From positions 36-64,035 of IMG/VR virus record IMGVR_UViG_3300031753_000005: a stretch of 64,000 nucleotides of DNA; one strand, 5' to 3'. The position numbers were made by a program, and so were the translations under genes. Below the pieces are notes generated by a model. The model did no database searches. It was given only the letters and a program-made list of their open reading frames with translations, and was not told where the DNA came from. The stretch is from a virus. Its lineage: Duplodnaviria > Caudoviricetes. Positions 4,912 through 42,958 of the stretch are shown here, piece after piece (within the stretch, counting starts at the first letter, position 1; every line of letters begins with the position of its first letter).

Positions 4912-4915
4912 ATGC

Positions 4916-5140: not shown

Positions 5141-5172
5141 AGCCGCTTTCTGTAGCACATTTTGGTGGGATT

Positions 5173-7269: not shown

Positions 7270-7284
7270 AAGGCTCCCTTTAAT

Positions 7285-21000: not shown

Positions 21001-21389
21001 ATGGCTGCCACCTCATATGGCACAAACGATCCGCTGGCGGTCAAATTATGGTCGCGGCGGCTTATCGTCGAAGTTCTGAAAAATACCTGGTGCTCCCGAT
21101 TCATGGGGGAGTCCTCGGGCTCGGTCATCCAAATCAAGGATGAGACGTCCAAAGGCCCCGGCGACAAGATCACCTACGGGCTGCGCATGCAGCTCACGGG
21201 CGCAGGCGTCATCGGCGACGGGACGTTGGAGGGTCAGGAAGAGGCTCTCACCACATACAACGACTCGCTCTTCATCAACCAGCTTCGGCATTCGGTCCGG
21301 TCCGCCGGCCGCATGACGCAGCAGCGGGTGCCGTTCAACATCCGTGACGAGGCTCTCAGTGGCTTGAGGGACTGGTGGTCCGACAGGCT
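21001..21389 (+). CDS. Major capsid protein exon 1 (N4-gp56-like / DUF4043 family)
   Basis: YGTNDPLAVKLWS...KGPGDKITYGLRMQLTGAGVIGDGTLEGQEEAL...INQLRH...MTQQR motifs. Confidence 0.9.
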
Positions 21390-22236
21390 TGAAGTCAGGC
21401 CCCTCGCGGCGTAAGTCGCGAGTGACAACGAGGTGAATTGCTGGAAACCCCTAACGTAAAGTCGAGGGCAATCAGCAGCCAAGCCTTGAATTGATATGGG
21501 ATTTCTGGTAATTTGATCGAATGAGAAACGATCAGTTACCAGATGGTATGAGATACGTTTTCGCTGACGGTTCGCCAGCGAGACGATGCAAAAAATGCGG
21601 AGATTGGAAGCCGCTTTCTGAGTTCCAGATGTACGATGTGTCCCGCGGGTGGCGTCGCCACGCATGCAGAACATGCAACACGGCTCGCATCGAGGAATGG
21701 CATCGGGAACACGCAGAAGAACGGAAAGCTAAAAATAGGGCTAAGTATGCGGCCGATCCGATCGCATACTGGTCGCCTCAACGCCGGAAAAGAGCCAATG
21801 AATTGGCCAAAAAACGAGCCACGGTGCTTCGCGAGCTAGTCTTGGTCGCTTATGGGCGCCAATGCATTTGCTGCGGAGAGGCCGAGCCGAGGTTTCTGAC
21901 GATCGATCACATCGAAAACGATGGGGTCATTCAGCGGAAATCACATGGCGTTGGCGCTCATTTCTGGCGCTGGCTTATCAAGCGCGGCTTCCCCGATGGT
22001 TTCCAAGTCCTTTGCATGAACTGCAATTTTGGCAAGGCCATGAACGGTGGCATTTGCCCCCATGTCGCCAAGGAAGGTTCAACGACTATCCCGTAAGGGA
22101 GTACGGCCAAGCGGCCGGAAGTGCCTCGGACCCTACCAGCCTAGCTGGAGGGCCGTGATATAGTCTGCTCTCACGGGAAACCGTGAGCAGTCCGAACGGG
22201 CGGTCGGAAAGTAGCGATCTCCGGCGAACATCAAGG
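21390..22236 (+). mobile_element. Group I self-splicing intron (IA2-like) in the major capsid gene
   Basis: P element AATTGCTGGAAA (~21436), Q element AATCAGCAG (~21470), R element GTTCAACGACTA (~22077), S element GATATAGTC (~22157), P7.1/P7.2 hairpins, P1 with U.G pair at the splice site, terminal G. Splicing restores WWSDRL-DFSFLNQ in frame. Confidence 0.92.
21521..22096 (+). CDS. Intron-encoded HNH homing endonuclease
   Basis: CKKC...CRTC Zn finger; CICCGE...LTIDHIENDG...QVLCMNCN HNH core. Confidence 0.88.
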   Translation: MRNDQLPDGMRYVFADGSPARRCKKCGDWKPLSEFQMYDVSRGWRRHACRTCNTARIEEWHREHAEERKAKNRAKYAADPIAYWSPQRRKRANELAKKRATVLRELVLVAYGRQCICCGEAEPRFLTIDHIENDGVIQRKSHGVGAHFWRWLIKRGFPDGFQVLCMNCNFGKAMNGGICPHVAKEGSTTIP

Positions 22237-22924
22237 CGATTTCAGTTTTCTGAATCAAGTCTGCGGGAACACCGCCCAGGTCGATACGCGGTTCACCGGG
22301 CTACAGGCGACGCTGATCCCGTCCGACACGAGCCATCAGGTTTTTGTCGGGAGCACGGGCAATGCCGGCACTGACCAGTCCATCTCGACAACCGAGACGT
22401 TTACCTTGACGGTAATCGACAAGGCGGTCGAGCGGGCGCGATCAATCTCGCCGGCTATTCGGCCTGTGATGATCGGCGGGCGGGCGTTCTACGTGGCGTT
22501 CCTGCATCCCTATCAGATCACCGATCTGCGCACCAACACCAATACCGGCCAGTTCATCGACATTCAGAAAGCGGCGATGACCGGCGGCGAAGTCGAAGAC
22601 AATCCGATCTTCGACGGCAGTTTGGGTATGTACAACGGCGTGATCTTGCACGGCGATTATCGGGTCAGTCTCGGTGTCAATTCATCAACGACAACCCTCG
22701 CAGTGGCAAGCACCCGGCGAGCGGTGTTCGCTGGTGCCCAGGCTGCGGTCTGCGCTTTCGGGCGCGACAACGGGCCGGAGCGGTTTACGTGGGTCGAGGA
22801 ACTCTTCGACTACGAGAACCAGCTCGGTGTCGCGGCGGGTCTGATCTTTGGTCTCAAAAAGGCAGTGTTCAATAGTGCTGACTTCGCGGTCATCACGATG
22901 GACACCTACGCCGCAGCCCACTGA
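22237..22924 (+). CDS. Major capsid protein exon 2 (spliced product 358 aa)
   Basis: Frame open from 22238: ...IRPVMIGG..YVAFLHPYQITDLR...NPIFDGSLGMYNGVILH...WVEELFDYEN. Confidence 0.9.
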
Positions 22925-22936
22925 GGAGGTATTGCA

Positions 22937-23449
22937 ATGGCTGTTCAGACTTACACCTGCACGATTGCCAAGAACCAGGTGCCGAAAGCCTACCAGGTGG
23001 GCGATCAGTCGGTGTCCGGCTACATCATGGAGTCGGGCGGCACCAATGCCGGCATTTCCACAGTGGGCGATATCCTGATCCTGTGCAAGATTCCGCACGG
23101 GGCGAGGATCGTCGACTTCTGGGAATATCACAGCACGGGCGCCACGGCGCAGGGCCTGCAATTCGGGCTCAGCAAGGGCGTGGCGGCGAGCGGTGGTGCT
23201 GGGCTTTCATGCCTCCTGGCCTCAAGTGCGCAAGCGACCATGAACCGGTTCAACGTCACGAACTGGAAAGCGGTTGCGGGCGCCATCGGGCCGCCGGTCG
23301 TGTCAATCTCGGATGCTGATACGACCAGATTTGCGCTGTTGCAGGCGCAGATCGTCAGCGGCACGACGACGACTTCGCTCAAGGTGTGGTTCAACATCAT
23401 CTATCGGATGGATGGGCCATACGAGACGCCGTCAGGCGCCGGCACGTAA
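22937..23449 (+). CDS. Capsid decoration / cement-like protein
   Basis: GAGGAGG RBS, immediately after the capsid gene; GDILILCKIPHGARIVD motif. Confidence 0.7.
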   Translation: MAVQTYTCTIAKNQVPKAYQVGDQSVSGYIMESGGTNAGISTVGDILILCKIPHGARIVDFWEYHSTGATAQGLQFGLSKGVAASGGAGLSCLLASSAQATMNRFNVTNWKAVAGAIGPPVVSISDADTTRFALLQAQIVSGTTTTSLKVWFNIIYRMDGPYETPSGAGT

Positions 23450-25160: not shown

Positions 25161-26570
25161 GTGGCGCGTCACAACGACCCGATCAACGAAGCGCAAGCGC
25201 TCATCGTCAAGGGCGATCCTGACAGCGCCGTTAGGATTCTGGCCGACTTTCTCAACACAGAGTTCTTTCACCCTAATGCCCTATTCCTGATTGGCTCATG
25301 CCTTCTGGGCAAGGGCCTTAACGGGTTTGCCGCAGCTCTGCTTTCCGCTGCGGTCGACGCGCGGGCGGCGAAAGATGAGACCTTCCCCGAGGCGATGATG
25401 AACCTCGGCTCGTGCTACAAATCCGAGCATCGGAACGAGGTTGCACGCCAGATCTATCTCGATGCCTTGAAGGTCGAAACCTTGCCGCGGGAACGGTCCA
25501 AAATCCTCGCGAACGTCAGCGGTCTCTACGTGAACGAGGGGCAGGCGCCGACTGCGATCGACTGGTGCGATCAGGCGCTGAGGGAGGATCCCTATAACGC
25601 CGGGGCCAAGGCAAACCGCGGCATGGCATGCCTCGAGCTCGGCCGCTGGCGCGAGGGCTGGGAGGGTTTCTACGCGACCTATGCGAGCGGCGACCGCTCG
25701 CGGCGCGTCTACGTGCCAAACGGGCATGCGAAGCCGCTTCCCGAATGGGAGGGCGAGGCTGGTCAGACGGTAATCGTGTTTGGTGACCAGGGTGTCGGCG
25801 ACGAGATCTATTTCGCCAACAGCCTCCCCGACATGATCGCGCGCTGCAAGAAGGTGATCCTCGATTGCCATCCCCGGCTCGAAAAAACCTTCGCGAAGTC
25901 GTTTCCGGAGGTCGAGGTCCATGGGACGCGGAAGGATCTCTCCGAGCTCGAATGGGTGCCCGAATGTGGCGCGGAATTCGCGATCGGGCTCTCCGATCTG
26001 CATCGGTTTTTCCGCAACTCGGATAAGGAATGGTGCGGCGCACCATATATCTCGGCTGGGGGCATTGTAATTAACGCCACATCGCGGCCGCCAAATTGGC
26101 CGCCACAGCGCATCGGCATCTCATGGACCGGCGGGGTGAAGCGGACGCGACAGGAGCTGCGCAGCGTCAGGCTCGCCGCGTTTCAACCGATAATCGAGTC
26201 GCTTCCCGGTGCACAATGGTTTTCGTTGCAGTACACCGATAACGCGGCCCGCGAGGTCTGCGAGTTCGAGGAAGCGACCGGGCTGCGCGTCGCGCATTTC
26301 CCGGGCAAGGTCGAGTGCTTCGATTACGACGAGACTGTCAATTTCATCGCTTCGATGGATCTCGTCATCACCGTCTGCACGACGGTTCACCATGTCGCCG
26401 GCGCGCTCGGCGTGCCGTGCTGGACGCTGGTGCCCAAGCAGGCCTCGTGGCGCTACAGCGGCATCGGCGAGCGACTTCCTTGGTATGATAGCGTTCGCTG
26501 CTTCCGGCAGACCGAGGACGGCGACTGGTGTGGACCGGTCGGCCGGATTGTTGAGGAGCTGAAGAAATAG
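25161..26570 (+). CDS. TPR-repeat + GT-B (GT9-like) glycosyltransferase
   Basis: N-terminal TPRs; W.GE...VFGDQGVGDEI, RIGISWTGG, SLQY, MDLVITVCTTVHHVAGALGVP, PWYDSVR motifs. Confidence 0.85.
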   Translation: MARHNDPINEAQALIVKGDPDSAVRILADFLNTEFFHPNALFLIGSCLLGKGLNGFAAALLSAAVDARAAKDETFPEAMMNLGSCYKSEHRNEVARQIYLDALKVETLPRERSKILANVSGLYVNEGQAPTAIDWCDQALREDPYNAGAKANRGMACLELGRWREGWEGFYATYASGDRSRRVYVPNGHAKPLPEWEGEAGQTVIVFGDQGVGDEIYFANSLPDMIARCKKVILDCHPRLEKTFAKSFPEVEVHGTRKDLSELEWVPECGAEFAIGLSDLHRFFRNSDKEWCGAPYISAGGIVINATSRPPNWPPQRIGISWTGGVKRTRQELRSVRLAAFQPIIESLPGAQWFSLQYTDNAAREVCEFEEATGLRVAHFPGKVECFDYDETVNFIASMDLVITVCTTVHHVAGALGVPCWTLVPKQASWRYSGIGERLPWYDSVRCFRQTEDGDWCGPVGRIVEELKK

Positions 26571-26897
26571 ATGGCACACCCGCAACTTCTCGCGATCACG
26601 AACACGGCCGTTCTGATTTCCAAGGTGCCGTGCCGCGTCAAGGCGATTTACGCTTTCAATGCGGCGAACGCCTCCGGGTTTTTGCAGTTATTCAACACGA
26701 ACGCCGCCGCGAATGTGACGCTCGGCACCACCGGGCCGGACGGCAGCTATGGAACGGCGACGCTAACCCCGATTTATCCGGATCTCGGCGAGGGGCTCGA
26801 TTTCCCCGGAGGGTTAGTCGCGGCCTGTACCACGACCTACAACGGCGCGGCTGCTCTATCGGCGAGCATGATCGTCAACTTTGTGATCGGTCCCTAA
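26571..26897 (+). CDS. Small beta-sandwich virion protein
   Basis: FN....FLQLFN...VTLGTT.PD...G..F..G pattern; paralogous to the next gene. Confidence 0.65.
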   Translation: MAHPQLLAITNTAVLISKVPCRVKAIYAFNAANASGFLQLFNTNAAANVTLGTTGPDGSYGTATLTPIYPDLGEGLDFPGGLVAACTTTYNGAAALSASMIVNFVIGP

Positions 26898-26898
26898 A

Positions 26899-27225
26899 AT
26901 GGCACGCGTCGGAATACAAGGCGGCCTTCTCGCTACGCCAGTGCAGGTCGCTCTGCAGAAGGCCAGATTAACCCATATGTGGGTTTTCAACCCCAGCAAT
27001 GCCGTCGCCTATGTGCAGATTTTCAATGCCCTGGCGGCCAAAGTGGTCGCGGGCACGACTGCGCCCGACATGAGTATCGGCCTCAATACCCTGATTTCGA
27101 CGTCGGTGCCACTAGGTACGGAAGGCCCCTATTTCGGCGGGGGCATCACGGCGATAGCGACTACCACTTACAACGGCAGCACGCCGCCAAACGTCGGCCT
27201 TCAGGTGCAGTTCGGGGTGGAATGA
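26899..27225 (+). CDS. Small beta-sandwich virion protein (paralogue of 26571-26897)
   Basis: FN....YVQIFN...VVAGTT.PD...TTTYNG shared with the previous gene. Confidence 0.65.
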   Translation: MARVGIQGGLLATPVQVALQKARLTHMWVFNPSNAVAYVQIFNALAAKVVAGTTAPDMSIGLNTLISTSVPLGTEGPYFGGGITAIATTTYNGSTPPNVGLQVQFGVE

Positions 27226-27737
27226 TGCTGATCAGCGAAGCGTACCGCGCGCAGCTTGCCGAAAAGCATCGCAAGTCCGCGACATTCGGCAATTCGGGTG
27301 CCGATTGGGCCGCCTTCGCCCACGATATGTGCCTCGCGAACGGTCTGCGTAGCGTTCTCGACTACGGGTGCGGGCAAGGGACGCTGCTCCTCGCGCTCCC
27401 CGAAAAGCGCCATTACACGGTTGCGGAATATGATCCTGCCATTCCCGGCAAGGATGGGCCGCCCGAGCCGGCCGACCTCGTAGTTTGCGGCGACGTGCTC
27501 GAGCATATCGAACCGGAATGCCTTGAGGAAGTGCTCGACGATCTGCGGCGGCTCTCGCTGAGAATGGCGCTGCTCGTCGTCGCCACAAAGCCGGCCCTGA
27601 AGCATCTGCCGGACGGGCGCAACACCCATCTGATCGTCGAGCCTGTGTGGTGGTGGCTGCCAAAGATCGCCTGTCGGTGGGTGATCAAGCACTTTCAGGG
27701 CAGCATGGGCGGATTTGTCGTGACGTGCAAAATATGA
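27222..27737 (+). CDS. Class I SAM-dependent methyltransferase
   Basis: VLDYGCGQG motif I; YDPAIP; DLVVCGDVLEHIEP. Confidence 0.88.
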   Translation: MMLISEAYRAQLAEKHRKSATFGNSGADWAAFAHDMCLANGLRSVLDYGCGQGTLLLALPEKRHYTVAEYDPAIPGKDGPPEPADLVVCGDVLEHIEPECLEEVLDDLRRLSLRMALLVVATKPALKHLPDGRNTHLIVEPVWWWLPKIACRWVIKHFQGSMGGFVVTCKI

Positions 27738-30953: not shown

Positions 30954-31202
30954 ATGAGTAAGATCGCATTCATTGGCGAGCATGTTTCGGTCGCGGCTCT
31001 TTTTGCTCAGATTTTGGAGAGAGAGAAGATGGAGGCGGTCGTTGCGGTCGTCCGGGTCGACGGCTGCTGGTATTCGACATGGAGCAGCGGCATCGATAAC
31101 GGCGGTCTTTCAATGGCGGCAATAAAACTGATGTCGGACGTGCAGGGCCGAATGCACGATGAGCCGCTGACCTGGAGCCCGACGCAAGGGGACGCCGCCT
31201 GA
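30954..31202 (+). CDS. Small hypothetical protein
   Basis: Packed between the adaptor and nozzle genes. Confidence 0.5.
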   Translation: MSKIAFIGEHVSVAALFAQILEREKMEAVVAVVRVDGCWYSTWSSGIDNGGLSMAAIKLMSDVQGRMHDEPLTWSPTQGDAA

Positions 31203-32740
31203 TGCCGACGCCGCCGCCGATCACTCTCCCGATCGCGCCCTACGCGCCTGACCAGCCGGGGGCGCCGGCAGCCCAGGCTGCAAAAAATGTGCGCGGCGTA
31301 TTTCCGCGGACCTCGACGAGCTATGGTGCTATGCCCCAGCCGACGCCGGTCTCTTCCGCGCTCGTCAATCAGTGCCAAGGCATGGGCACATTTCTGGGTT
31401 CGGCGGGGGTGGCGCATGTATTCGCCGGCGATCTGAGTCGCCTGTATCATATAGGGGGCGCCGGCACGACCCTCTCGTTCACCGATGCGTCAGCGGCCGG
31501 CGGATATAACGTCAGCCAGAATGATTTCTGGGAATTCGTTCATTTCAACGGCCAAGTGTTGGCTATTGAATATAACGATCCGATTCAGGCGTTCACATTA
31601 GGTGCCGGCACCCATTTCAACAATCTCGCGGCAGCCGCACCGAAAGCAAAGCATATTGCCGTCATCAAAAATTCGTTCGTGATGGTCGGCAACACGCAAG
31701 ATCCGACGAATGGCGCGAAGGAGCAGCGCGTTTGGTGGTGCGCGGCAGGTGATGCCTCGAATTGGCCAGTGCCTGGCAGCCAAGTGGCCGCTCAATTCCA
31801 GTCTGGTGCCATCGATCTGCTTGGCGATGCCGGGCCCGTGAATGCCCTACGATCAGATCTGACCTCGGCGGATGGTCTTGTTTTCCAGCAAGACTCGTTA
31901 AGGCGCATCGTCTATGTGGGGCCGCCCGCGATCTTCGATTTTCTGCCGGCGCAGAATGGGCGAGGCACCTATTCGCCCTATTCGCCTGTGGTGGTCGGGG
32001 GCAACTGTTATTTCCCGGCCTTTGATGGATTTTATTCGTGCGACGGAGCCAGCGTTTCGCCGATTGGCTCGGATAAAATAAATCGCACCTTCCTCGATGA
32101 TTTGGCCAGCAATTATGCGACTGTGCAGGGCGCGAAGGATCCGATCCGGCAAGTCATATGGTGGTCCTATGCTGGGCAGGGCAGCATAAATGGCGTCCAC
32201 AATAGGATCATCGGCTATTCGTGGCTTTTCGATCGCTGGTGCATTCTCGATGTCGTCGCAGAAGCTATCGGCAACGCCTTTGCTTTTGGCTACACGTTAG
32301 ATCAGCTTTACACGGTGCTCGGCTATACGCTCGACAATTTGCCCGCACCTTTGGATTCCCCGCTATGGCAGGGCGGGACGCAGGTGCTCGGGGTTTTCGA
32401 TAGTTTGCATCAGCTGAATTTCTTTACCGGATCGGCGATGGCGGCGACCGTGGAGACCCAGGAGATGGAGCTTATCCCCGGGCAACGCTCGCTAATTACG
32501 GGTGTGCGACCGTTGGTCGACGGCACAAACGTCCAAACGCCAACGGTGGCGATTCAGCATCGCGAGCTCGGCGAGACGGTGCCGGCCGTGACGCCATATT
32601 CCGCGATCAACTCTCTGGGCAAAGCTCCGGTGCGGACGTCAGGCCGCTATGTGCGGGCCTCGATCTCGATCCCGGCCGGCGGCGATTGGACGAACATTTC
32701 CGGCGCGGCGGTCGACGCGGTGCCACAGGGACAAAGATAG
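31202..32740 (+). CDS. Tail nozzle / packaged-DNA stabilisation protein (beta-propeller)
   Basis: YAPDQP...KNV...; WEFVHFN; RVWW; PIGSDKINRTF; RTSGRY motifs. Confidence 0.82.
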   Translation: MPTPPPITLPIAPYAPDQPGAPAAQAAKNVRGVFPRTSTSYGAMPQPTPVSSALVNQCQGMGTFLGSAGVAHVFAGDLSRLYHIGGAGTTLSFTDASAAGGYNVSQNDFWEFVHFNGQVLAIEYNDPIQAFTLGAGTHFNNLAAAAPKAKHIAVIKNSFVMVGNTQDPTNGAKEQRVWWCAAGDASNWPVPGSQVAAQFQSGAIDLLGDAGPVNALRSDLTSADGLVFQQDSLRRIVYVGPPAIFDFLPAQNGRGTYSPYSPVVVGGNCYFPAFDGFYSCDGASVSPIGSDKINRTFLDDLASNYATVQGAKDPIRQVIWWSYAGQGSINGVHNRIIGYSWLFDRWCILDVVAEAIGNAFAFGYTLDQLYTVLGYTLDNLPAPLDSPLWQGGTQVLGVFDSLHQLNFFTGSAMAATVETQEMELIPGQRSLITGVRPLVDGTNVQTPTVAIQHRELGETVPAVTPYSAINSLGKAPVRTSGRYVRASISIPAGGDWTNISGAAVDAVPQGQR

Positions 32741-33268: not shown

Positions 33269-34252
33269 ATGGCCCGCATTTTTATTCTATCCGGCACTTC
33301 CTGGCCAGTCCCTCCTGATTGGACCTCTTCTAATAGTATTGAGACAATTGGGGCTGGCGGCGGCGGCTCTGACACTGTAACCGGTGTAGCCTACGGCAAT
33401 GGTGGCGGTGGTGGGGAATATCGCTTAGCTAGCAACGTCGCTGGCCTTAGTGGCTCACTGACTATTGGCGTCGGTAGCGGTGGTTTGCATGGATCTGTTG
33501 CTGGGGGTGGGGGCGGTACTTGGTTCAACGGAGCAACACTCGGTGTATCTACTGTTGGCGCTAATGGGGGTGGTGGTGGCACTGATGCAGGCGGTGGCGC
33601 TCCCGGTATAGGTGGGACTGGAGGTCACGGAGGAACTATTAATTGGGATGGTGGTAGCGGTGGCACAGCGGCTCTAGCAAACGCCACAGGTGCTTCGGGC
33701 GGCGGCGGTGCTGCTGGACCATTCGGAGCTGGGCTAGCGGGCGCAGGGAACGCTGGTGCATTCCTTTCTGATACGGGCGGTGCCGGTGGGGGTGGAACTG
33801 GTGACCCAGCAAGTGGAGCGGCAGGGTCCGGGACTGCTGGAAGCATTATTCCAAGTAAGACTGTTGGTGGCACTGGCGGCAAAGGTGAGAATGGCACAGC
33901 GGGGGGGGTTGGTGGTAGCGGCGCAGGTGCCGCTGGCAGTTCTGGATCGCAGGGTTCTGGTGGCGGCGGTGGTGGAAGTTCAGGGACTACTGGGGGCGCT
34001 GGCGGCACTGGGGGCAATGGTATTGAATGGGATGCATCGCATGGGGCTGGTGGCGGTGGTGGGGCTGGCGGCGGCGGCTCTGCGTCGGATGGTGGCTTTG
34101 GCGGTGGTGGTGGCCTTTATGGAGGTGGTGGGGGTGGTGGTGGCTTTTCCGGGAGTGCAAACGTTGGTATAGGTGGCAATGGTGCAAATGGCATTATTGT
34201 CGTGACTTATACGCCTTCGGGTCTATTTCTCTACCCACAAGCCTGCATGTGA
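33269..34252 (+). CDS. Glycine-rich fibre protein
   Basis: SGTSWPVP...IGAGGGG...GGNGANGIIVVTY glycine-rich domain. Confidence 0.8.
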   Translation: MARIFILSGTSWPVPPDWTSSNSIETIGAGGGGSDTVTGVAYGNGGGGGEYRLASNVAGLSGSLTIGVGSGGLHGSVAGGGGGTWFNGATLGVSTVGANGGGGGTDAGGGAPGIGGTGGHGGTINWDGGSGGTAALANATGASGGGGAAGPFGAGLAGAGNAGAFLSDTGGAGGGGTGDPASGAAGSGTAGSIIPSKTVGGTGGKGENGTAGGVGGSGAGAAGSSGSQGSGGGGGGSSGTTGGAGGTGGNGIEWDASHGAGGGGGAGGGGSASDGGFGGGGGLYGGGGGGGGFSGSANVGIGGNGANGIIVVTYTPSGLFLYPQACM

Positions 34253-34279: not shown

Positions 34280-34639
34280 ATGAGAAATTCCCAGCGATCC
34301 AAAGAGTCGTATCTGCTGGTAGACCACCGTGCCAGTCCTGGATTGACGCCCGAGATGGCCCGTCGAATGGGCTATATTCCCGAGCTTGTCGCCGAGGGCA
34401 AGGTATTCGAGGCGCCGACGCTCACTTGCGCGCACTGCCGAACAATCGCGATCATGAACCTGGATCGGACGCGGGCGCGCGGTCGCTGTAACTACTGCGA
34501 CAGCTATGTTTGCGACGTATGCGCGCTGGCGATGATGAGCCCGGATTACATCCATTTACCCTGGCAGAAGCGTGTCGACGACCATATGGACGCCGAGGCT
34601 CGCCCGGACCCGTTCGTGCTGGCACCGATCTTGCGATGA
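34280..34639 (+). CDS. Zn-finger protein
   Basis: CAHC...CNYC...CDVC...H motifs. Confidence 0.7.
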   Translation: MRNSQRSKESYLLVDHRASPGLTPEMARRMGYIPELVAEGKVFEAPTLTCAHCRTIAIMNLDRTRARGRCNYCDSYVCDVCALAMMSPDYIHLPWQKRVDDHMDAEARPDPFVLAPILR

Positions 34640-35406
34640 CCCGTTCGCTCTTCGTCGCGACACCAATGTACGGCGGGCAATGCTACGGCGATTTTGCGGC
34701 TTCGCGGCAAAATCTGCTGGGGCCTTTGACGCAGCGAGGCATATCGGTCAGGACGTGGGGCGTTGCTGATAGCCTCGTCACTCGCGCCAGGAATTATTGC
34801 GCAGCCGAATTCATGAACGGCGACATGACGGATATCCTATTCGCCGACGCCGATGTGTCATTCGAGCCGCAGGGCGTGCTCGACCTGATGTCGCATCCCG
34901 ATAAGGATGTGGTCTGCGGCGCATATCCCAAGAAGGAGATCAATTGGGCTCTGGTGCGGGACGCGGTCAAGCTCGGATTTGCTGACGACGACCCCGCCGT
35001 ATTAGAGAACTTTACCAGCACGTTTTTCTTCCATCCGGTTCATCCCGAATTGCCTCATCAGATTGCCGATCCACTTGAGGTGCGGGAGACGGGAACGGGA
35101 TTCATGCTGATTAGACGGCATGTGCTGGAAGCGTTCCAACATGCTTATCCCGAGCTCTATTATTATTCAAATCCCGACGAGAGAGTGTATCAGGGGCAAA
35201 AAATTCCCTGTTTCTTCGATACCGAAATCGTCAATCATCGATACCTCTCTGAGGATCAGAACTTCTGTCGTTTGGTGATTGCGCTCGGGATGAAGGTGTG
35301 GGTTCTGCCCCACATACAGCTCACGCATTTGGGATATTACAAGTTTATTGGGAATGTCAGCGCAATAACGGCAGTGCAACAGGCTAAGGAGCAATCGAAT
35401 GAATGA
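34636..35406 (+). CDS. GT-A (GT2-like) glycosyltransferase
   Basis: VATPMYGG, SLVTRARN, FADAD (DxD), GAYPKK, GTGFMLIRR, SEDQNFC and L.H.G motifs. Confidence 0.88.
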   Translation: MTRSLFVATPMYGGQCYGDFAASRQNLLGPLTQRGISVRTWGVADSLVTRARNYCAAEFMNGDMTDILFADADVSFEPQGVLDLMSHPDKDVVCGAYPKKEINWALVRDAVKLGFADDDPAVLENFTSTFFFHPVHPELPHQIADPLEVRETGTGFMLIRRHVLEAFQHAYPELYYYSNPDERVYQGQKIPCFFDTEIVNHRYLSEDQNFCRLVIALGMKVWVLPHIQLTHLGYYKFIGNVSAITAVQQAKEQSNE

Positions 35407-35734
35407 TCATCTAGACGCAATTCGCGAGGCATTGGAAGAGTTTGTCCGCAAGCGCGATCCTGTGCCGCAACCCGCCGAAGAGGATTTTGCAAACCTCGAT
35501 GCGTACCATTCCGCACTCGCGGAATGGCTTGCCAGCAGGAGCGCGCGTCGGGACGCGGCCCTCAGCGATGACCTGCGGGGCGCCTTTCGCAACGTTGAAG
35601 ACCTGACTGCGTTTTTTGCCAATCCGCCAGATGTGTTGGCGAGATTGCCATTATCTCCAGAGCCGCCTTTGGTGCCTTCGGAAGCCGGCCCTGTAGTGCA
35701 ACCTGAAGGCATCAGAAATGAAGGACTCGACTGA
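35399..35734 (+). CDS. Acidic hypothetical protein
   Basis: Overlaps both neighbours. Confidence 0.55.
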   Translation: MNDHLDAIREALEEFVRKRDPVPQPAEEDFANLDAYHSALAEWLASRSARRDAALSDDLRGAFRNVEDLTAFFANPPDVLARLPLSPEPPLVPSEAGPVVQPEGIRNEGLD

Positions 35735-36252
35735 TGGCTAAAAGGCTATTTCAAACCAGCAACTGGACGCCAGCGTTGACGGCTGACGCCGCGACACTGG
35801 CGAATGCGTCGTACATGGCAGTAAAGGGCGGCACCACGACCCAATATCTCGATTTTCTCGAATTCTCGATCTCGGGAATGGCCGGCGCGTCGTCTCCAAC
35901 TCCGCTGACCTTCGCTCGCTCCTCGACCTTGGCAGTTGGGCCGAGCGCGTTGGCGGCCCCCGCGAGCGACGGCCCAGCCAATCCGTTTACTGCAGCCCTT
36001 GGCACGGCTCCCGTTTCATTTACGGCGGTCGCAACTACGGGGGGTCAGCGATCGGGCGCGACTACCGACGCTAAGCTGCAGCTCGGGATCAATGCGTTCG
36101 GCGGGATTCTCCGTTGGAGTGCCGCGCCTGGACAGCAGTTCAGCTCTTACGGCAACGCTGTGACGTCGCCAGCCGGCGAGTCATATCTGTCGGCTCAGAA
36201 CTACGGCACGGCGGGATTGATCCAGGCGTCTATAATATACGAGCCGATGTGA
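35734..36252 (+). CDS. Ala/Thr/Ser-rich beta-sandwich virion protein
   Basis: AAGGA RBS; INAFGGILRW motif; C-terminal IIYEP. Confidence 0.7.
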   Translation: MAKRLFQTSNWTPALTADAATLANASYMAVKGGTTTQYLDFLEFSISGMAGASSPTPLTFARSSTLAVGPSALAAPASDGPANPFTAALGTAPVSFTAVATTGGQRSGATTDAKLQLGINAFGGILRWSAAPGQQFSSYGNAVTSPAGESYLSAQNYGTAGLIQASIIYEPM

Positions 36253-36283
36253 GTTCCGCAACGCCGCGGGCCTGGAGTATGGA

Positions 36284-36526
36284 ATGATGAAGCACAAGTG
36301 GAATTCTGACTCCGTCTCATGGCTTGATGGTCCAGATGCTGTTCCTGCCCCAATGTGCTCTCTTCGCCTTCCATGTAAGTGCGGCGAGGTGGCTCTCTAT
36401 AAAGAGGCGGTCGGGAGATTCTACGTGGACTCTGCGACTCTCAAAAAAGGCACAATCAGGGTGGGAAGCGCCGAGGAAGCGATCAGAAGGTGGCATCAAA
36501 TTGAGGCGGGAAGCTCGTCGCAGTGA
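36284..36526 (+). CDS. Small hypothetical protein
   Basis: PCKCG...AEEAIRRW pattern (Lar-like Zn ribbon remnant). Confidence 0.45.
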   Translation: MMKHKWNSDSVSWLDGPDAVPAPMCSLRLPCKCGEVALYKEAVGRFYVDSATLKKGTIRVGSAEEAIRRWHQIEAGSSSQ

Positions 36527-39204
36527 CGTTCCGACCGCCGGTCATCGTTCCGCGATGGGAGGTCGATCCGGCGGGCATAACCCGCAAATCGCAGGATGGC
36601 GTCCGCGCCAATCTTCTGCTGACGACGCTGCGCTCGCGCGATCGTATCTACGAAGCTCAAGGGCAGGGGATCCCGCAATATGACTGGCCAACTCCGCCCC
36701 CGGCTCGCCAACCCGAGCGGTCATGGTCGTCAGGAGCTCTTGTCCTCTCTACCCTACAAAGCCGGGATACAATCTACGGCCCTCAAGGCAAGGGGGTTCC
36801 GCAATATGACTGGCCAACTCCACCGCCGGCTCGCCAGCCAGATCGCTCGTGGTCATCTGGCAGCCTCGTGGTCTCGACCCTATACGGTCTTGATCGGGTC
36901 TATGGGCCTCCAGGCGAGGGTATTCCTCAATATGATTTCCCCACCCCGCCGCCTGCGTATCAGCCCACGAGGTCTTTCGTTGCTCCGTTCAGGCTCGGAG
37001 CGGATGCGAAGCTGCTTAACCAGAATTATGATTATCCCACGCCACCGCCTCCTCTGCCGAGAGATAGGTTTTACGGGCAAACACTTGTTTCCCTTACTCT
37101 CAATAGTCAAGACGCAAGCACACGAGGAGCGCCGTTCTATGATTTGACGAATAGGGGTTTCGTCCAGCCGGATCGTTCTTATTCGCAGAATATACCCAAA
37201 CCCCTATATGGCCAACCACCATCGCCTTTTGCTCAATACGACTGGCCGTTGCCGCGGTCGCCAATACAGCCCGATCGGTTCTATTTTAGCGATCTGCTGT
37301 TCGCCACCCTGCTGCATAAAGACGCACTGATTAACGGCGCGCAATTTACTGACTTGGCGAAAACGCCCGCCCCGCCTGACCGGACTTATGTTCAGCCCGG
37401 AATCAAGATCAATCCAATACCGCGCAATCAATTTGATTGGCCTGTTCCCCAGGTACCGCTCCAGCCCGATCGCGCATACTCCCAGACGCTGAACTATTTG
37501 ACCCTTGCTAGCCAGGACGCCACTGGAGCCAGCGGCGGTCTATCCGGCTCCTCTGTTGGGCCAATGGAGTTGCCACGAGCGGCGTTACAGCCAGACCGCA
37601 ACTATTACACATACCCTCAGCTGTTCTCACTTGTAACTCCGCTCGTCGGGCCGATTTCTGGGGCGCCGATTTCATCTGGCCCAATCACCGGTAGCCCGCC
37701 GGGCCCGATTATCCAGATTCCGCTGCACAATGTTTCATTCGAATTGCCCCGCGTTCCGCTGCCACCGAATCGAGGCTATTCGCAAACTCTGTCATCAAGC
37801 ACATTGCTGCACAACGACAGGATGTTAGCCGGTCGCCAAACAAGCGAAATTCCCCAAACGCCTGTTCAGCCAAATCGATCGTTCATTTCATTCGTCAACC
37901 CGGCAGTCGTTGTGTTTCCGTTTTCTCAGGTGGACTGGTCGGTGCCACGGATAGCTCTGCAACCGGAGCGATCCTGGCAACAAAACCTTATCTCTAACAC
38001 ATTGCAGAATCGCGATACGCTTATATTCAGTAAGCAGGAAGCGGTAATGCCGCTGATCCCGGTTCGCGCAGTGCAGACGATTATGTTTCGGCCGTCGCCG
38101 GCGACGATTCCTCCAGTGCCATTTGCCCAGCTTGACTGGCCTCTTCCCAAGACAGCATTGCAGCCGGAGCGGTCGTGGTGGCAGGCTCTGGTCGCCGGCA
38201 CACTCAAGAGCCAAGATGCAGCGCGAGCCGTAGGTCAAGCCGGGGAGTTACCGCGCTCGGTCATTCAGCCAGATCGCAGCTACCTGCAGAATACGGCACT
38301 TGTTAGCTATGCGGCGCAAATCCCATTTGCTCAACTCGATTGGCCTATTCCAAAGGTGCCGCTGCAACCCGACCGCTCCTGGTGGCAAGACCTTGTCTTC
38401 GCGACGCTTTACAATCAGGACGCAAGGGTGGCCGGTGCTCAGCTGATTCAGGAGCTCGCGAAAAGCCCACTCCAGCCGGATCGCTCGTTTGTACGCGTCA
38501 CTCTCCTCCCCGCGATCAGCTTTCCTCCATCACCTTTTGCTCAGCGCGACTGGCCGCTGCCGACGAGAGCCGTTCAGCCTGAGAGATTTTGGTCGCAAGC
38601 TCTAATCTCGCTCACGCTGTTTGGTAAGGACGTAAGAATAATCAGCACACAATCCGCTGAATTGACAAATATAGGGACTCTCCAGCCGGAGCGGTTCTGG
38701 CAGCAAGATCTCATCATCGATACGCTGTTCGGCCAAGATGCGATAATTACCAGAGGACAGCTGGCTGATTTGGCAAACGGAACATTTCAGCCCGATCGCT
38801 TCTATGCGCGAGGGATGGATGCTCTCATATTTCAATTGTTATTCCCATTCCAGCCTCCCGCGCCGGCGCCGGCATTAGTGGTCACAGGATATCCGGCTGT
38901 GCCGCTATGGCAGACGAGTTCGCCTCAGACGTGGTCGGCGCGAATAGGCGACATCTTGAGCAAGGTCCAGCAAGGCAAGCAGAACGTCACGCTGAAAATC
39001 ACGCTGGCGGCCGGCACATCGACCGTCGTCATCGATCCCCGGATAAGCGCAACATCTGCGCTGACTTTCACGCCGCTGACGGCCGATGCCGCCGCAATCC
39101 TAAGCAGCATCTATGTGAGCGCCCAACGGGCCGGCCGGGCCACGCTGATATATAGCAGCACGGCGAAGACGGATTGTACCTTCACCCTACTTATTCAAGG
39201 GTAA
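36523..39204 (+). CDS. Pro-rich tandem-repeat protein with C-terminal tail-associated domain
   Basis: About 19 QP[DE]R-aromatic repeats, many preceded by Q.DWP.P; last ~90 aa (QGKQNV...TLAAG..T...DPRI...P.TA.AA) resemble a small podovirus tail protein. Confidence 0.8.
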   Translation: MTFRPPVIVPRWEVDPAGITRKSQDGVRANLLLTTLRSRDRIYEAQGQGIPQYDWPTPPPARQPERSWSSGALVLSTLQSRDTIYGPQGKGVPQYDWPTPPPARQPDRSWSSGSLVVSTLYGLDRVYGPPGEGIPQYDFPTPPPAYQPTRSFVAPFRLGADAKLLNQNYDYPTPPPPLPRDRFYGQTLVSLTLNSQDASTRGAPFYDLTNRGFVQPDRSYSQNIPKPLYGQPPSPFAQYDWPLPRSPIQPDRFYFSDLLFATLLHKDALINGAQFTDLAKTPAPPDRTYVQPGIKINPIPRNQFDWPVPQVPLQPDRAYSQTLNYLTLASQDATGASGGLSGSSVGPMELPRAALQPDRNYYTYPQLFSLVTPLVGPISGAPISSGPITGSPPGPIIQIPLHNVSFELPRVPLPPNRGYSQTLSSSTLLHNDRMLAGRQTSEIPQTPVQPNRSFISFVNPAVVVFPFSQVDWSVPRIALQPERSWQQNLISNTLQNRDTLIFSKQEAVMPLIPVRAVQTIMFRPSPATIPPVPFAQLDWPLPKTALQPERSWWQALVAGTLKSQDAARAVGQAGELPRSVIQPDRSYLQNTALVSYAAQIPFAQLDWPIPKVPLQPDRSWWQDLVFATLYNQDARVAGAQLIQELAKSPLQPDRSFVRVTLLPAISFPPSPFAQRDWPLPTRAVQPERFWSQALISLTLFGKDVRIISTQSAELTNIGTLQPERFWQQDLIIDTLFGQDAIITRGQLADLANGTFQPDRFYARGMDALIFQLLFPFQPPAPAPALVVTGYPAVPLWQTSSPQTWSARIGDILSKVQQGKQNVTLKITLAAGTSTVVIDPRISATSALTFTPLTADAAAILSSIYVSAQRAGRATLIYSSTAKTDCTFTLLIQG

Positions 39205-39214
39205 TGAGCTGACA

Positions 39215-40531
39215 ATGATGCTCCTCCTCCGCGTCCTGGCGGTTGCGCTCGCATGCCTATTGCCGTTTGGGGCAGAGCAGTCGGCGCGTGCAAAGCTATA
39301 CGATATGGTCGAAATGACCGTCGCGAGCGCGCCAGGGCTCGGCACAATCACACTCGGCACAGCGATTCCCCCATATCAGTCATTATCGGCGACCGCCGTC
39401 GCACCCGGCGAAACGGTCTCCTATCATATCGCTGATATCAATAACAACTGGGAAAATGGCCGCGGTGTCGTCACTCTCAGTCCGAACATAACGATCACTC
39501 GGGGCGTGATCAGCTCGAGCAACGCGAATGCGCTAATTAACGCGAGCGCAGGAGCCATCGTCTGGATTGTGCCGAACGCCGCCGATATGGTCATGACGCA
39601 ATATCCGTCGACAATTAGTGCTGCGGTTGCGGAGACTCCCTGTGTGCTAACATCCGCCGCTACCGTGACGGTAAGCGGGGCATGCGATGTTTATACGCTC
39701 ACCGTAGCTAATGATCCGGCTCTTCTCAGTAATCCCACGTCCACCTTGCTCGGACAGTGGCTTACGTTTTTTATCACACAGGACGTGACAGGCAATAGAC
39801 GAGTCCCGTTTGGCTCTAATTATATATTTTCCGGGGGATGGAATGCTGCGGTGCTCTCGACGGGAGCAGGGAAAACCGACGCCTTCGCTTGCAAGACCCT
39901 CGTCGCCAATGGCGCAATGTACTGCACCCCGCCAGTCGTAGATTTCTATGTTGGGTCACGAGAGACATGGAGCCCCACGCAAAAGAATGCCGTATTTACT
40001 CTTAGCCCCAACAATCAGACGGCAACCGCGGGCACCGTCGCGGCCGATTCCGTCGTATTGGGTTCTGCCGGCGTATCGGCAGGAAAGATTTTTTTTGAAA
40101 TAGACTATACGGGCAGCCAAGCCAATTGTTGCAACGGCGTGGGATTGGGCAATATCAATACAAGCACGGTGACCGGCCAGTATCTTGGAATTGATAACAA
40201 TGGCATTGTTTACAATAACCAGGGCAGCGTGGTGTCGAACGGGACGACCGTGGCGACAATCGCGACCTATACAACCGGCGCCCAAATATGTGTCGCGGTC
40301 AACCTCAATACTAATCTGCTCTGGTTCCAGCCACTCGGCGCTGGGCAATGGGATAATAATGGCACAGACAATCCCGCGACGGGGATCGGAGGCTACTCCA
40401 TAGCCAACGTTGCCGCTGCGGCAGTCGTTCCCGGCGGAACCGTCAATAACACGGGAGTGGCGTTCGTGCTTAAACCGAGCTTGGCATGCGCCGGCGTGAG
40501 CGGCCTTGCTGGCTTTGGTGTAATGCCATGA
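39215..40531 (+). CDS. Signal-peptide tail-fibre-like protein with C-terminal SPRY/B30.2-like domain
   Basis: ARA-K signal site; GTITLG...Y.I.D..WE.G.G...SSN fibre N-terminal domain; GKIFFEI..GVGL...ICVAVNL SPRY pattern. Confidence 0.75.
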   Translation: MMLLLRVLAVALACLLPFGAEQSARAKLYDMVEMTVASAPGLGTITLGTAIPPYQSLSATAVAPGETVSYHIADINNNWENGRGVVTLSPNITITRGVISSSNANALINASAGAIVWIVPNAADMVMTQYPSTISAAVAETPCVLTSAATVTVSGACDVYTLTVANDPALLSNPTSTLLGQWLTFFITQDVTGNRRVPFGSNYIFSGGWNAAVLSTGAGKTDAFACKTLVANGAMYCTPPVVDFYVGSRETWSPTQKNAVFTLSPNNQTATAGTVAADSVVLGSAGVSAGKIFFEIDYTGSQANCCNGVGLGNINTSTVTGQYLGIDNNGIVYNNQGSVVSNGTTVATIATYTTGAQICVAVNLNTNLLWFQPLGAGQWDNNGTDNPATGIGGYSIANVAAAAVVPGGTVNNTGVAFVLKPSLACAGVSGLAGFGVMP

Positions 40532-41823
40532 TAGCGCGTATGGCTAAAATCTCAGCAGTCATTGGCCTGCTGGCTGTCCTCGCTATTCCGGCCGAGCCTA
40601 GCATCGCGCAATTCACGCCTCCGTTACTATTACAGAATACGATTGCCGCTAAAAAACCAAAGCCACCACCGCGCCCGCCTGCGTTCGACGCGGTAGCATA
40701 TAGTCCAAATGCGAGTAACGCAGTTATAGGATTGACGACGACGACAGCAGCATTTCCGCTGGGCTGGCAAACCTACGGAACTACGTTTTCTTATAACACC
40801 ACAACGTTTCGCGATCCCGAGATACTTACCAATCAGCAAGGGGCGGCTACTAAAGTAAACGGGCATTATTGGTTGGCCTTCACTGCGATCTCCGCTGCTA
40901 ATTTCAACAACGGCAGCGAACAAGCGTCGTCTTTCGGATTGGCATATTCTGATGATCTAGCTACATTTACCTTTTCACAGTTCGTATCGTGTTTCTCGTC
41001 AGTTCCTGCGACTCCTATCTGCTGGGCACCAAAGGGTTATATCGACAATTCTGGAGGGATGCACTTTATCGTGTGCGCTGGGACCAATCAGAATTTCGGC
41101 ACCCAGGACATGCAACCAACAGAGGTGCATCCGCTCACGTCTGACCCCAACGGGGCATGGTCAGTTCCCCTGACCATTACTGGCACAGCACTCCCAGCCG
41201 GCGGTTTTGATTACCGTATCCAGCAAGATGGATCAGGGACGCGGTATATGTTTTATGTAGTCGATGCGCCGCCCGGCGGTGGAGAATTTACGGGGTTAGT
41301 CAGCAGTGCATCTGATTTCTCAGGTTATAATACGCTGATATCTTCCAACGTGGTTGGTAATCCCAATACGCAATCGTTTGAATCGCCGCAAGCCTTCAAG
41401 CAAGGGAACGCATGGTATCTTTTTGGTTACTGGAATGTTAACACTTCCTATGCGACATCATCAGCTATTTCTGGCCCGTATTCCGCACTGACGCAGCTTG
41501 GGCAAAATTCTCAAGTTGACATGACCGGAATCTTTGCCGGCCCGCTTGCCCCGACGTACGTCACATTTGACACCAACCCGGTAAGCGTGCCCGATACGTC
41601 GGCGCTACACACCGCCGTCACTGGCGTCACGGTCGTCGTGCCTGGCGGGCCACCCTATCAGGGAACGCCCACTGTGCAGTCCTGCTCGCAATCGCCGTGT
41701 CCGTTTGGGATCACGGGCTCGACGGGCAACTGGTCGCTCCAGACGATTTTGAACCCGAGCGGCGGTACTCCACCCACTCTGACGGACGTCAACAACGCAA
41801 CTCTGGTGATTAATGCGCCGTAG
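40528..41823 (+). CDS. Signal-peptide protein with GH43-like beta-propeller
   Basis: SIA-Q signal site; RDPEI, WAP, ESP and WYLF motifs of five-bladed glycosidases. Confidence 0.65.
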   Translation: MIARMAKISAVIGLLAVLAIPAEPSIAQFTPPLLLQNTIAAKKPKPPPRPPAFDAVAYSPNASNAVIGLTTTTAAFPLGWQTYGTTFSYNTTTFRDPEILTNQQGAATKVNGHYWLAFTAISAANFNNGSEQASSFGLAYSDDLATFTFSQFVSCFSSVPATPICWAPKGYIDNSGGMHFIVCAGTNQNFGTQDMQPTEVHPLTSDPNGAWSVPLTITGTALPAGGFDYRIQQDGSGTRYMFYVVDAPPGGGEFTGLVSSASDFSGYNTLISSNVVGNPNTQSFESPQAFKQGNAWYLFGYWNVNTSYATSSAISGPYSALTQLGQNSQVDMTGIFAGPLAPTYVTFDTNPVSVPDTSALHTAVTGVTVVVPGGPPYQGTPTVQSCSQSPCPFGITGSTGNWSLQTILNPSGGTPPTLTDVNNATLVINAP

Positions 41824-42958
41824 CATCCTCCTCGTCATCGCGACGCTCGGGCTCGCGCTCCTCTCCGTCCTGGCCCACGCCGTCACCGGCACTCTAACCT
41901 ACAACATCACGTCCGGCGCCGGCACTGTCGCCTGCGATCTTGGACCCAATTACATCGGGTCCATCCCGGCCGGTGCGCAGGCCGCAGGTTTCACGCACTG
42001 CGCTGGCAACTACGATTTCACCCAATCAACGCCGTTCACGTACATGGGACAAACAGTAACGTGGTCTAACACGCCCATCTGGCTTCAATGCACAGGCCAG
42101 GTTCCAGCAAATCCTTTGTGGTATGGGTATAGCGAAAACGGCCCGACGACACCGTGCAGCGATTACCCGATCATGATTGACAACAACGGCGATGCCGGCG
42201 CAAGCGGCGGTCAGGTGTTAGGTGTGATCTTCACCCAGGCGGACTTTAACAACAACGTTCAGGTGACAAATCTCGCTACGGCGAACAACCAGAATTACCC
42301 GAACCCGGCAGGCACGTCGTTCCCAAATGGGGCGTATCTCGAATGGGTGGCGCGCATGACGAATGCCACTTATGCGAGCCACCAACCCAAGAACTATTTT
42401 TTCAACCTCTGGGAAAGCAGCCCGCAGGCGCAGTGGGTCGAATTTGATCAGATGGAGATATTCGGAACCGGTGTAGGCGCCGGGGCCGGCTTTGGGGAGC
42501 ATGGATGTAACGGCAGCTTCGGGTGCCCAGGCTACCCGGCGCTATCCCACGTCAGCGATAGCTCGATTACCACCTGGGATCCTACGAAATATCAAAATTA
42601 CGGCTGGCGATGGACGCATGATGCGAATGCCAATTTCGGAGCCTGCGTCTACTGGAACGGCACGCAGATTCCCCCACAGCAAGGCGGCACGCGCCAGCCT
42701 TGCGATAGCGGGTCATACTTCAACGGAGTTTCCGATCCTGCATTCACGAGCCAGCGAAACCAATTGATAATCTGGTCAGGGCCGAACGAAAACTCCACTA
42801 CAGCCAATTGCTCCGATGATGGAGTAAACCTTGTTATCTGTAACCCCCCCGCTGGTGGAAACGTTACCTTAGTGCAACGGGTGACGGTCTGGGTGCCGCC
42901 CTCGTGTATATGGCAGACGCAGCCGTGCATTACCACTGTGGATGTTGGCGCCCCATGA
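41813..42958 (+). CDS. Signal-peptide Cys-rich protein, GH16/ConA-like
   Basis: AHA-V signal site; EFDQME (ExDxxE) motif; YQNYGWRW...YWNG. Confidence 0.65.
   Translation: MRRSILLVIATLGLALLSVLAHAVTGTLTYNITSGAGTVACDLGPNYIGSIPAGAQAAGFTHCAGNYDFTQSTPFTYMGQTVTWSNTPIWLQCTGQVPANPLWYGYSENGPTTPCSDYPIMIDNNGDAGASGGQVLGVIFTQADFNNNVQVTNLATANNQNYPNPAGTSFPNGAYLEWVARMTNATYASHQPKNYFFNLWESSPQAQWVEFDQMEIFGTGVGAGAGFGEHGCNGSFGCPGYPALSHVSDSSITTWDPTKYQNYGWRWTHDANANFGACVYWNGTQIPPQQGGTRQPCDSGSYFNGVSDPAFTSQRNQLIIWSGPNENSTTANCSDDGVNLVICNPPAGGNVTLVQRVTVWVPPSCIWQTQPCITTVDVGAP

Follow-up and report, generated by a model that had tools for sequence, protein, structure and literature searches.

To our knowledge, chain-like virion fibres, in which beads are carried on a rope, first became known in 2023, and the few cryo-electron microscopy structures that show them all have Gp80-like beads. 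In the Pseudomonas podophage A1002, as described in PMC13730344 (PLoS Biol 2026), a nozzle-rope protein of 620 amino acids (aa), gp39, has a C-terminal nozzle-like anchor, and its rope of ~300 Å offers 11 docking sites for dimers of the fibre proteins gp40 (147 aa) and gp41 (171 aa). The same source describes five gp80 dimers on a separately encoded rope in the Ralstonia podophage GP4, and similar dimers in VP1; the chain-like fibres of GP4 extend upwards from the tail to dock on the capsid (PMC13730344), and in GP4 Fiber-1 a small immunoglobulin (Ig)-like fibre-tail adaptor joins the rope to the tail (PMC13730344, PMC12609058). In the collar/whisker of the myophage Bas63, gp5 dimers sit "such as beads on a string" on a rope that is an N-terminal extension of a small Ig-like collar domain; the Gp80-type bead is described as having a helix at its N-terminus and an incomplete sandwich, to which the rope contributes the missing strand (PMC12609058, Sci Adv 2025). 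Here we compare with these fibres a gene cassette of the podophage in IMG/VR record IMGVR_UViG_3300031753_000005 (64,035 bases, 100% complete by CheckV). The stretch that we analysed, called the window below, spans 64,000 nucleotides (nt), positions 36 to 64,035, and is nearly the entire record. The cassette encodes a Zn-finger protein, a 172-aa beta protein and an 893-aa repeat protein, and by analogy we see about an even chance that the last would be the "rope" of a chain-like (beads-on-a-rope) virion fibre. A preliminary description of the locus, made from the sequence alone, had proposed a virion appendage that fits no described family; with rope-plus-bead fibres solved in GP4, VP1, Bas63 and A1002, that part of it is out of date.

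We favour a rope-and-bead reading because the layout of the locus, with a folded C-terminal tail-protein domain, a motif chain that is predicted not to fold and a small beta protein encoded upstream, matches that of GP4, VP1, Bas63 and A1002. The parts concerned are these:

36523-39204, plus strand: 893-aa repeat protein, candidate rope; GTG start, 12.8% proline.
36523-36657, plus strand: N-terminal head of the candidate rope, residues 1-45, with the motif M-T-F-R-P-P...R-W..DPAG...LL.TL...D.
36658-38880, plus strand: repeat region of the candidate rope, residues 46-786, with ~11 DWP-led super-units and 19 QPxR-type motifs; predicted to be disordered alone.
38881-39204, plus strand: folded domain at the C-terminus, covering residues 787-893 and the stop codon; matched by profile A3 (hmmsearch E 1.9e-39).
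35734-36252, plus strand: 172-aa all-beta jelly-roll in an AlphaFold2 model, candidate bead.
34280-34639, plus strand: 119-aa Zn-finger protein, C-x-H-C...C-x2-C-x4-C-x2-C.
31202-32740, plus strand: 512-aa tail nozzle protein (phrog_3287, E 1.2e-61; PDB VP1 "nozzle gp16", 8zkk_O, E 1e-14).

The start codon of the 893-aa open reading frame (ORF) is backed by an N-terminal motif that is common to homologues: M-T-[IV]-F-R-x-P is present in 14 of 65 repeat-bearing homologues, and the N-terminal motif of the rope is also found in the ropes of loci L004, L006-L009, L014, L016 and L017. When motif counts were tested against 2000 shuffles each, QP[DENT]R.[WFY] occurred 16 times (shuffle mean 0.01, maximum 1), the relaxed form [QPL]P[DENT]R 19 times (mean 0.39, maximum 3) and D[WFY]P.P nine times (mean 0.08). 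The repeat-rich ORF of the preliminary description is thus real, with motif counts far above those of the shuffles, and its "about 19" QPxR copies are the relaxed count, the strict one being 16. Long units (DWP..QPxR..L..TL..D) had also been said to alternate with short ones; this alternation can be seen both in the motif spacings, which are 42, 42 and thereafter mostly 30-36 alternating with 58-68 aa, and in an alignment of eight super-units of 68-74 aa, in which P, R, L, T, L, D, P and R are invariant (consensus PFAQxDWPLPxxPLQPDRxWxQxLxSxTLxxQDA...ELxxxPLQPDRSY). A long unit and a short unit together make one super-unit, of which there are ~11 in all, and each super-unit holds two QPxR-strand motifs. 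The 126-nt period reported for the first three repeats is likewise present: the first three motifs are exactly 42 aa, or 126 nt, apart, and Tandem Repeats Finder agrees (126-nt period, 1.8 copies, 81% matches, at 36656-36882), the nucleotide identity of the repeat units being 73% between units 1 and 2 and 52% between units 2 and 3. The D-W-P-x-P and Q-P-[DE]-R motifs are kept across proteins that are only 25-30% identical. The 893-aa protein itself has no match in Pfam, PHROGs, NCBIfam or PDB sequences, nor by tblastn against phage records.

In an AlphaFold2 model made from a 54-row alignment, residues 1-789 have a predicted local distance difference test score (pLDDT) below 50 and no DSSP elements except one 4-residue helix; the ESM Atlas model has a mean pLDDT of 0.38, and only its C-terminal part resembles anything. 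As a single chain, the repeat region is therefore predicted by neither method to form a solenoid or a fibre. The preliminary description had stated that repeats folding alone into such a structure would count against docking motifs, and both predictors leave them unfolded. The predicted disorder would also suit a bare tether, that is, a disordered, extended Pro-rich linker or whisker whose task is to bind a host surface polymer or simply to space a terminal domain, with linkage to the neighbouring genes reflecting shared module inheritance. Indeed, members such as P0137 and P0007 have globular N-terminal domains, lectin-like by eye, so the repeats can act as spacers. A spacer, however, needs no invariant D-W-P-x-P and Q-P-[DE]-R motifs across proteins as divergent as these, and linkage across ~8 lineages in different genome contexts, described below, argues for a functional unit; we give the bare tether little credence. 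A further alternative is a homotrimeric fibre, in which the repeats fold as a shaft only in three chains, nucleated by the C-terminal beta-sandwich, and the 172-aa protein is a separate part, either a distal knob on the N-terminal motif or a receptor-binding protein. Fibres that need three chains to fold are often missed by monomer predictors, and the monomer predictions are uninformative about trimers. We consider a homotrimeric shaft less likely than beads on a rope, though a serious rival: the protein is 12.8% proline, no strand or helix is predicted across 740 residues by the two predictors, and conservation falls on short polar/aromatic motifs (DWPxP, QPDR) without a regular hydrophobic pattern.

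The C-terminal domain is, by contrast with the repeats, confidently modelled (AlphaFold2 pLDDT 81-96 for residues ~800-893), with a helix at 801-816, six strands and a helix at 854-862. Positions 3-110 of profile A3, which represents 37 stand-alone proteins of ~100-120 aa, match residues 787-893, and a six-frame translation of the window contains no second match to this profile, making the fused copy the sole copy. An exhaustive phmmer search of 1.84 billion representatives returned 534 proteins that match the rope or its anchor at E <= 0.001. Among 154 listed homologues, 65 have at least three repeat motifs, 88 have the C-terminal domain, and five have both; DWP repeats and the domain occur together in the window protein, P0018, P0057, P0081 and P0137. 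Fifty of the 88 domain carriers are stand-alone proteins (<=135 aa), and the other 38 are longer, with widely differing N-terminal extensions, among them repeats of other types and globular domains resembling lectins by eye. In all three fetched loci that have both genes (L001, Bradyrhizobium phage ppBeUSDA76-2; L010, MW202512; L011, MW202481), the stand-alone gene lies directly after the nozzle gene. In the window, a 174-aa ORF directly follows the nozzle gene, with no stand-alone gene of the post-nozzle family in that place, and the domain is instead fused to the repeat protein, whose gene begins 3.8 kb past the end of the nozzle gene. The profile match and the synteny bear out the earlier view of the last ~90 aa as a small tail protein that is usually encoded by a gene of its own after that of the nozzle.

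We read the C-terminal domain as a putative virion anchor because it is a conserved syntenic element with varying N-terminal cargo; one shared C-terminal end with varied cargo fits such a role and, as far as sequence comparison can tell, the post-nozzle domain behaves as a general attachment module. The nozzle gene gives context for this anchor: its tblastn matches are annotated as nozzle or phage stabilization protein, and its product is a relative of the nozzle of VP1, which has chain-like fibres. Separately, we note that in P0017, P0024, P0052, P0088, P0112, P0127 and P0025 the domain is C-terminal to unrelated repeat types or to lectin- or SPRY-like (by eye) domains, and that some of the repeat types fused to it are Gly-rich 20-residue strand-like units recalling GP4 gp79. 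An internal or ejection-protein role for the post-nozzle domain, an idea that came from the gene order of T7, was set aside since family members carry globular N-terminal domains, lectin-like by eye.

The best fold matches of residues 818-893 are the C-terminal beta-sandwich of tailspikes and depolymerases (Z 6.8-7.9, root-mean-square deviation 2.4-2.6 Å, 65-71 residues, 16-25% identity), including K64-1 S2-4 (9k4a; Z 7.9, 2.5 Å, 71 aligned residues), K1 lyase (7w1c, Pfam PF24146; Z 6.9) and the Pam1 tailspike (7eea; Z 6.8, 25% identity), which was also found by Foldseek with the C-terminal domain (E 3.2e-3, 24% identity). Since all of these matches are below Z 8, we treat them as a lead only and not as a family assignment. 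The window domain matches no Pfam family at E <= 1, and so not K1-lyase_C (PF24146); four of 38 members of the domain family match K1-lyase_C weakly (best E 0.0026), and the anchor-family profile has no match to PDB sequences at E <= 10. Tailspikes and depolymerases are trimeric, and the fold matches and weak K1-lyase_C matches favour the homotrimeric shaft, in which the N-terminal motif shared by 14 of 65 ropes could serve as one docking site only. The setting differs: tailspikes and depolymerases carry the domain distally, as the tip of a long beta-helix enzyme, and in the phages compared here it is either an independent protein encoded after the nozzle or the terminus of a disordered repeat protein.

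The candidate bead is modelled by AlphaFold2 (47-row alignment) with a pLDDT of 92.0, a predicted template modelling score of 0.88, 13 strands and no helix. Its family comprises 157 clusters of 163-207 aa, none with an informative name or a Pfam domain. The 172-aa protein has no match in Pfam, PHROGs or NCBIfam, none in the PDB by single sequence or profile, and no tblastn match in 50,697 phage records; 47 members of the family (A4) have no PHROGs match at E <= 1, phrog_240 included. Genome scans that covered one genome per species across 185,579 species found the bead family on a single contig of a metagenome-assembled genome. In a wide comparison of the model with the PDB, the best 50 matches listed are all jelly-rolls (Z 5.1-7.1). 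They include the nucleoplasmin core, nanovirus coat, Ena spore-appendage subunits, C1q/TNF domains, BclA and fibre tip domains, as well as the capsid-type HFTV1 turret (Z 7.0), KHP40 cement protein (7dou, Z 6.7), GP4 8h89_J (Z 5.7) and Pam1 7eel_H (Z 5.5), the last two of which are presumably cement proteins. Foldseek against the PDB gave weak jelly-roll capsid matches only (E at least 6.8e-3), and a BFVD search gave uncharacterised phage proteins only (template modelling scores 0.5-0.64). The modelled protein is a jelly-roll; matches below Z 8 show the common fold only, and not which kind of jelly-roll it is.

This fold lends itself to more than one explanation. Jelly-roll C1q/TNF-like knobs are frequent fibre tips, and BclA, the 7-7-1 fibre and the Bd2133 fibre are among the fold matches, all of which would suit a knob on a homotrimeric shaft. 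The HFTV1 turret, KHP40 cement, GP4 8h89_J and Pam1 7eel_H neighbours would rather suit capsid decoration, with the 172-aa protein as a cement/turret-type head protein and the repeat protein as a strap on many copies or a head-tail tie; the docking of GP4 chain-like fibres on the capsid, as described in PMC13730344, points the same way. We think capsid decoration improbable, since all Z values are below 8 and those of the cement proteins tie with nucleoplasmin, Ena pilins and C1q/TNF domains, and since the cassette lies among tail/tailspike-like genes in the window, L004, L007 and L017. Moreover, the window has a positional cement candidate elsewhere, a 170-aa gene directly after the capsid gene (22937-23449), for which hhalign against the 172-aa family (A4) gives a probability of 0.06% and a PDB sequence search gives no match.

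The candidate bead and the candidate rope recur together. Eleven other loci carry the bead gene (L004-L009, L014, L016, L017, L018 and L021). All 11 encode a Zn-finger homologue right before the 172-aa homologue, and a Pro-rich repeat protein is encoded within 5 kb of the bead gene in 10 of the 10 informative loci, L018 being uninformative because it ends 569 nt after the bead gene. The repeat-protein gene is directly downstream of the bead gene in L005, L014 and L016, 0.7-1.7 kb from it in L021 and L017, and ~3.5-3.8 kb from it in L004 and L006-L009; in the window, the rope gene begins 271 nt past the end of the 172-aa gene. Viewed from the rope side (L004, L014, L015, which is identical to L019, L016, L017, L020 and L021), bead and Zn-finger genes are present in five of the six informative loci, L015 being uninformative because it starts inside the rope gene. 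L006-L009 are close relatives, as are L014 and L016, leaving ~8 lineages when the window is counted; a metagenome scan by repeat patterns added just two new loci. In the Zn-finger protein, C50, H52, C53, C70, C73, C78 and C81 are invariant in nine of nine aligned sequences. The preliminary description had proposed a co-occurrence check for four genes, and three of them, those for the repeat protein, the 172-aa protein and the Zn-finger, are indeed linked across uncultured phages. The fourth, a glycosyltransferase gene, drops out: the glycosyltransferase-like gene and two small ORFs have no homologue in the six loci L004-L009, and since Zn-finger and bead genes abut in all 11 other loci, there is no room between them for any of these. 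The glycosyltransferase-like gene is a local insertion, outside the conserved cassette.

Repeat types and rope ends vary between loci. The L005 rope has a different Pro-rich repeat, yet the L005 bead is 53% identical; such great differences in repeat type beside similar beads, together with a tight bead-then-rope order that matches GP4, argue against the homotrimeric shaft. Rope ends are the post-nozzle domain in the window and four other clusters, a charged tail in L004, and a KPEWAA..NQLLGP...QPETH tail on two different repeat proteins in L006-L009. The last is a ~25-aa tail, KPEWAA[DN]SNQLLGP..QPETH, common to the 602/603-aa and 294/295-aa ORFs of L006, L007 and L009 and to the 294-aa ORF that alone is present in L008; from its sequence it looks like an attachment peptide. 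The ropes of L014 (2599-4233) and L016 (9449-11122) are composite, with an N-terminal half of window-like DWP/QPDR units and a C-terminal half made of a second, ~14-aa repeat, L-x-E-W-x-x-G-x-R-x-D (LAEW-type).

Among the solved systems, as far as PMC13730344 describes it, A1002 is alike in having a long protein with a folded C-terminal tail-attachment part and many docking sites or motifs, small beta proteins of ~150-170 aa encoded beside it, and a podophage nozzle comparable, like that of the window, to VP1's. The A1002 anchor is a piece of the nozzle (platform, propeller blades), whereas the window anchor would be the post-nozzle domain, with a full-length nozzle encoded separately; and A1002 beads, compared here by their description only, resemble GP4 gp80, whereas the window bead is a helix-free jelly-roll. 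GP4 and the window share a gene order, bead first (gp80) and then a repeat-bearing protein (gp79; genome MH638294). We infer that gp79 is the GP4 rope because it has ~10 strand-like Gly-rich repeats; it is Gly/Ala-rich, whereas the window rope is Pro/Trp-rich, and rope and anchor are separate proteins in GP4 but fused in the window. phrog_240 (gp80; at E <= 1) and phrog_19041 (gp79) have no match in the window genome, and hhalign of the anchor family (A3) against GP4 gp77 gives a probability of 0.07%. Bas63, in the account of PMC12609058, has the same polarity as the window, with an N-terminal rope that extends from a small folded C-terminal domain, which in Bas63 is fixed to the virion; it differs in having two dimers per rope, GP4-like beads and a myophage neck where the window has a podophage tail. 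A Zn-finger partner is not described for A1002, GP4, VP1 or Bas63 in the accounts of PMC13730344 and PMC12609058.

Several observations weigh against a rope with beads. By sequence the bead is not of the Gp80 type, with an hhalign probability of 5% for A4 against GP4 gp80 and phrog_240 absent; its model lacks the N-terminal helix described for Gp80-type beads (PMC12609058), and GP4 Fiber-1 is not among the best 50 matches listed for it. The spacing differs too: the window has ~35-42 aa per motif and A1002, as described, ~268 aa for 11 dimers, which makes the window repeat about twice as long per site. The monomer predictions are compatible with folding in a trimer or upon a partner, and the modelled likeness of the C-terminal domain to distal tailspike domains fits a trimerising tip equally well, so that the polarity may be the opposite one. 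L020, a contig of 4,750 nt, carries a rope but no bead or Zn-finger gene, as a bare tether might. Lastly, the L005 cassette is among head genes, between portal/minor head protein and protease/capsid genes, a position that favours capsid decoration.

With these points in mind, we propose the following working model for a rope-and-bead fibre. The C-terminal 107-aa domain would replace the small post-nozzle protein and fix the chain to the tail. The ~740-residue Pro/Trp-rich part, which is predicted to have no fold of its own, would be the thread, offering super-units with two QPxR-strand motifs each as docking sites. Copies of the 172-aa jelly-roll would dock on the repeats as beads, and thread and beads together would make up a fibre as long as the number of repeats dictates; the load would be ~10 beads if one oligomer binds per super-unit and up to 19 if one binds per motif. 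More speculatively, the Zn-finger protein, encoded just before the bead gene, might aid assembly or cap the chain. Given that the parts have no detectable sequence relation to those of the solved systems and that the bead has a jelly-roll fold, the cassette would most likely be an independent version of the same design, an analogous system of different parts. In its full form, as a convergent second beads-on-a-rope fibre with jelly-roll beads unrelated to Gp80 on DWP/QPxR motifs, a Zn-finger factor, three genes that form a mobile cassette, a terminal anchor that is swapped to suit different virion sites (here the post-nozzle domain) and ~10-19 beads per rope, we put this proposal forward tentatively.

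The remaining genes of the run, and the head genes and other landmarks of the window, are as follows:

34636-35406, plus strand: glycosyltransferase-like ORF, 256 aa from the ATG at 34636, with sub-threshold profile matches.
35399-35734, plus strand: 111-aa ORF between the glycosyltransferase-like and bead genes, with a weak scaffold-like PHROG match (E 0.00097).
36284-36526, plus strand: 80-aa Cys-containing ORF between the bead and rope genes.
1-1491: large terminase.
13848-16175: portal.
21001-21414 and 22406-22924: major head protein, split in two, matching phrog_334 positions 1-130 and 192-380.
22937-23449: the 170-aa positional candidate for a cement protein.

The upstream genes of the preliminary description, a Cys6/His Zn-finger and a 172-aa beta protein (all-beta in its model), are present, and the tight run holds two small ORFs beyond those that it named, at 35399-35734 and 36284-36526. 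Its GT-A glycosyltransferase fares less clearly: the ORF is there, but it reaches glycosyltransferase profiles only below their curated cut-offs (Pfam Anp1, E 0.004, 17.1 bits against a cut-off of 28.8; Glycos_transf_2, E 0.012, 16 bits against 23.3). Among PHROGs it matches phrog_1574, whose function is unannotated (E 2.4e-44), and phrog_34859, "glycosyltransferase" (E 0.0044), and it has no PDB sequence match. The 80-aa ORF has no match in Pfam, PHROGs or NCBIfam, and no such ORF separates the adjoining bead and rope genes of L014 and L016.

Around the cassette, a 327-aa protein that consists almost entirely of Gly-rich GGxGG tracts is encoded at 33269-34252, between the 174-aa post-nozzle ORF and the Zn-finger gene, and has no family match in Pfam, PHROGs or NCBIfam. 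Straight after the 893-aa gene, at 39215-42958, are three successive ORFs (438, 445 and 381 aa) with N-termini that are signal-peptide-like by eye, the middle one (445 aa) with a sub-threshold GH43 match (E 1e-4); secreted-type proteins are unusual in a virion module. By nozzle and portal, the nearest isolates are Rhizobium, Bradyrhizobium, Paracoccus, Microcystis, Pelagibacter and Methylophilales podophages, at 27-44% identity. The two pieces of the major head protein are separated by an HNH/endonuclease VII-like ORF (21521-22096), and 21355-22187 matches a group I intron below threshold (RF00028, E 0.001; 25 bits, where the gathering score is 50); the split at 21001-22924 is probably a homing-endonuclease intron in the capsid gene. 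A tetratricopeptide repeat (TPR) protein and a methyltransferase are encoded between capsid and tail genes (25161-27737). In MW202512 (L010, 1124-4557) the order is the same and comprises TPR, endonuclease, methyltransferase and galT-like genes; a modification module may be conserved amid the structural genes. Large proteins (698, 803 and 550 aa) are encoded between terminase and portal (3402-11756), the 803-aa one including a segment that resembles lysozyme or a tape measure. L010 is among the relatives in which large ORFs, presumed here to be ejection-protein genes, come after the nozzle gene and the small protein gene, and the ejection-type module appears to be relocated in the window relative to L010.

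The cassette has so far been found in uncultured phages only. If it does encode a second, unrelated pair of bead and rope, the beads-on-a-rope design would have evolved more than once, and repeat number would be a general means for phages to set fibre length and receptor-binding valency. Three families that are now "hypothetical", those of the bead, the rope/anchor and the Zn-finger, would gain a role, and the small protein encoded after the nozzle gene would be an attachment module with exchangeable cargo, which would aid the annotation of podophage tails.

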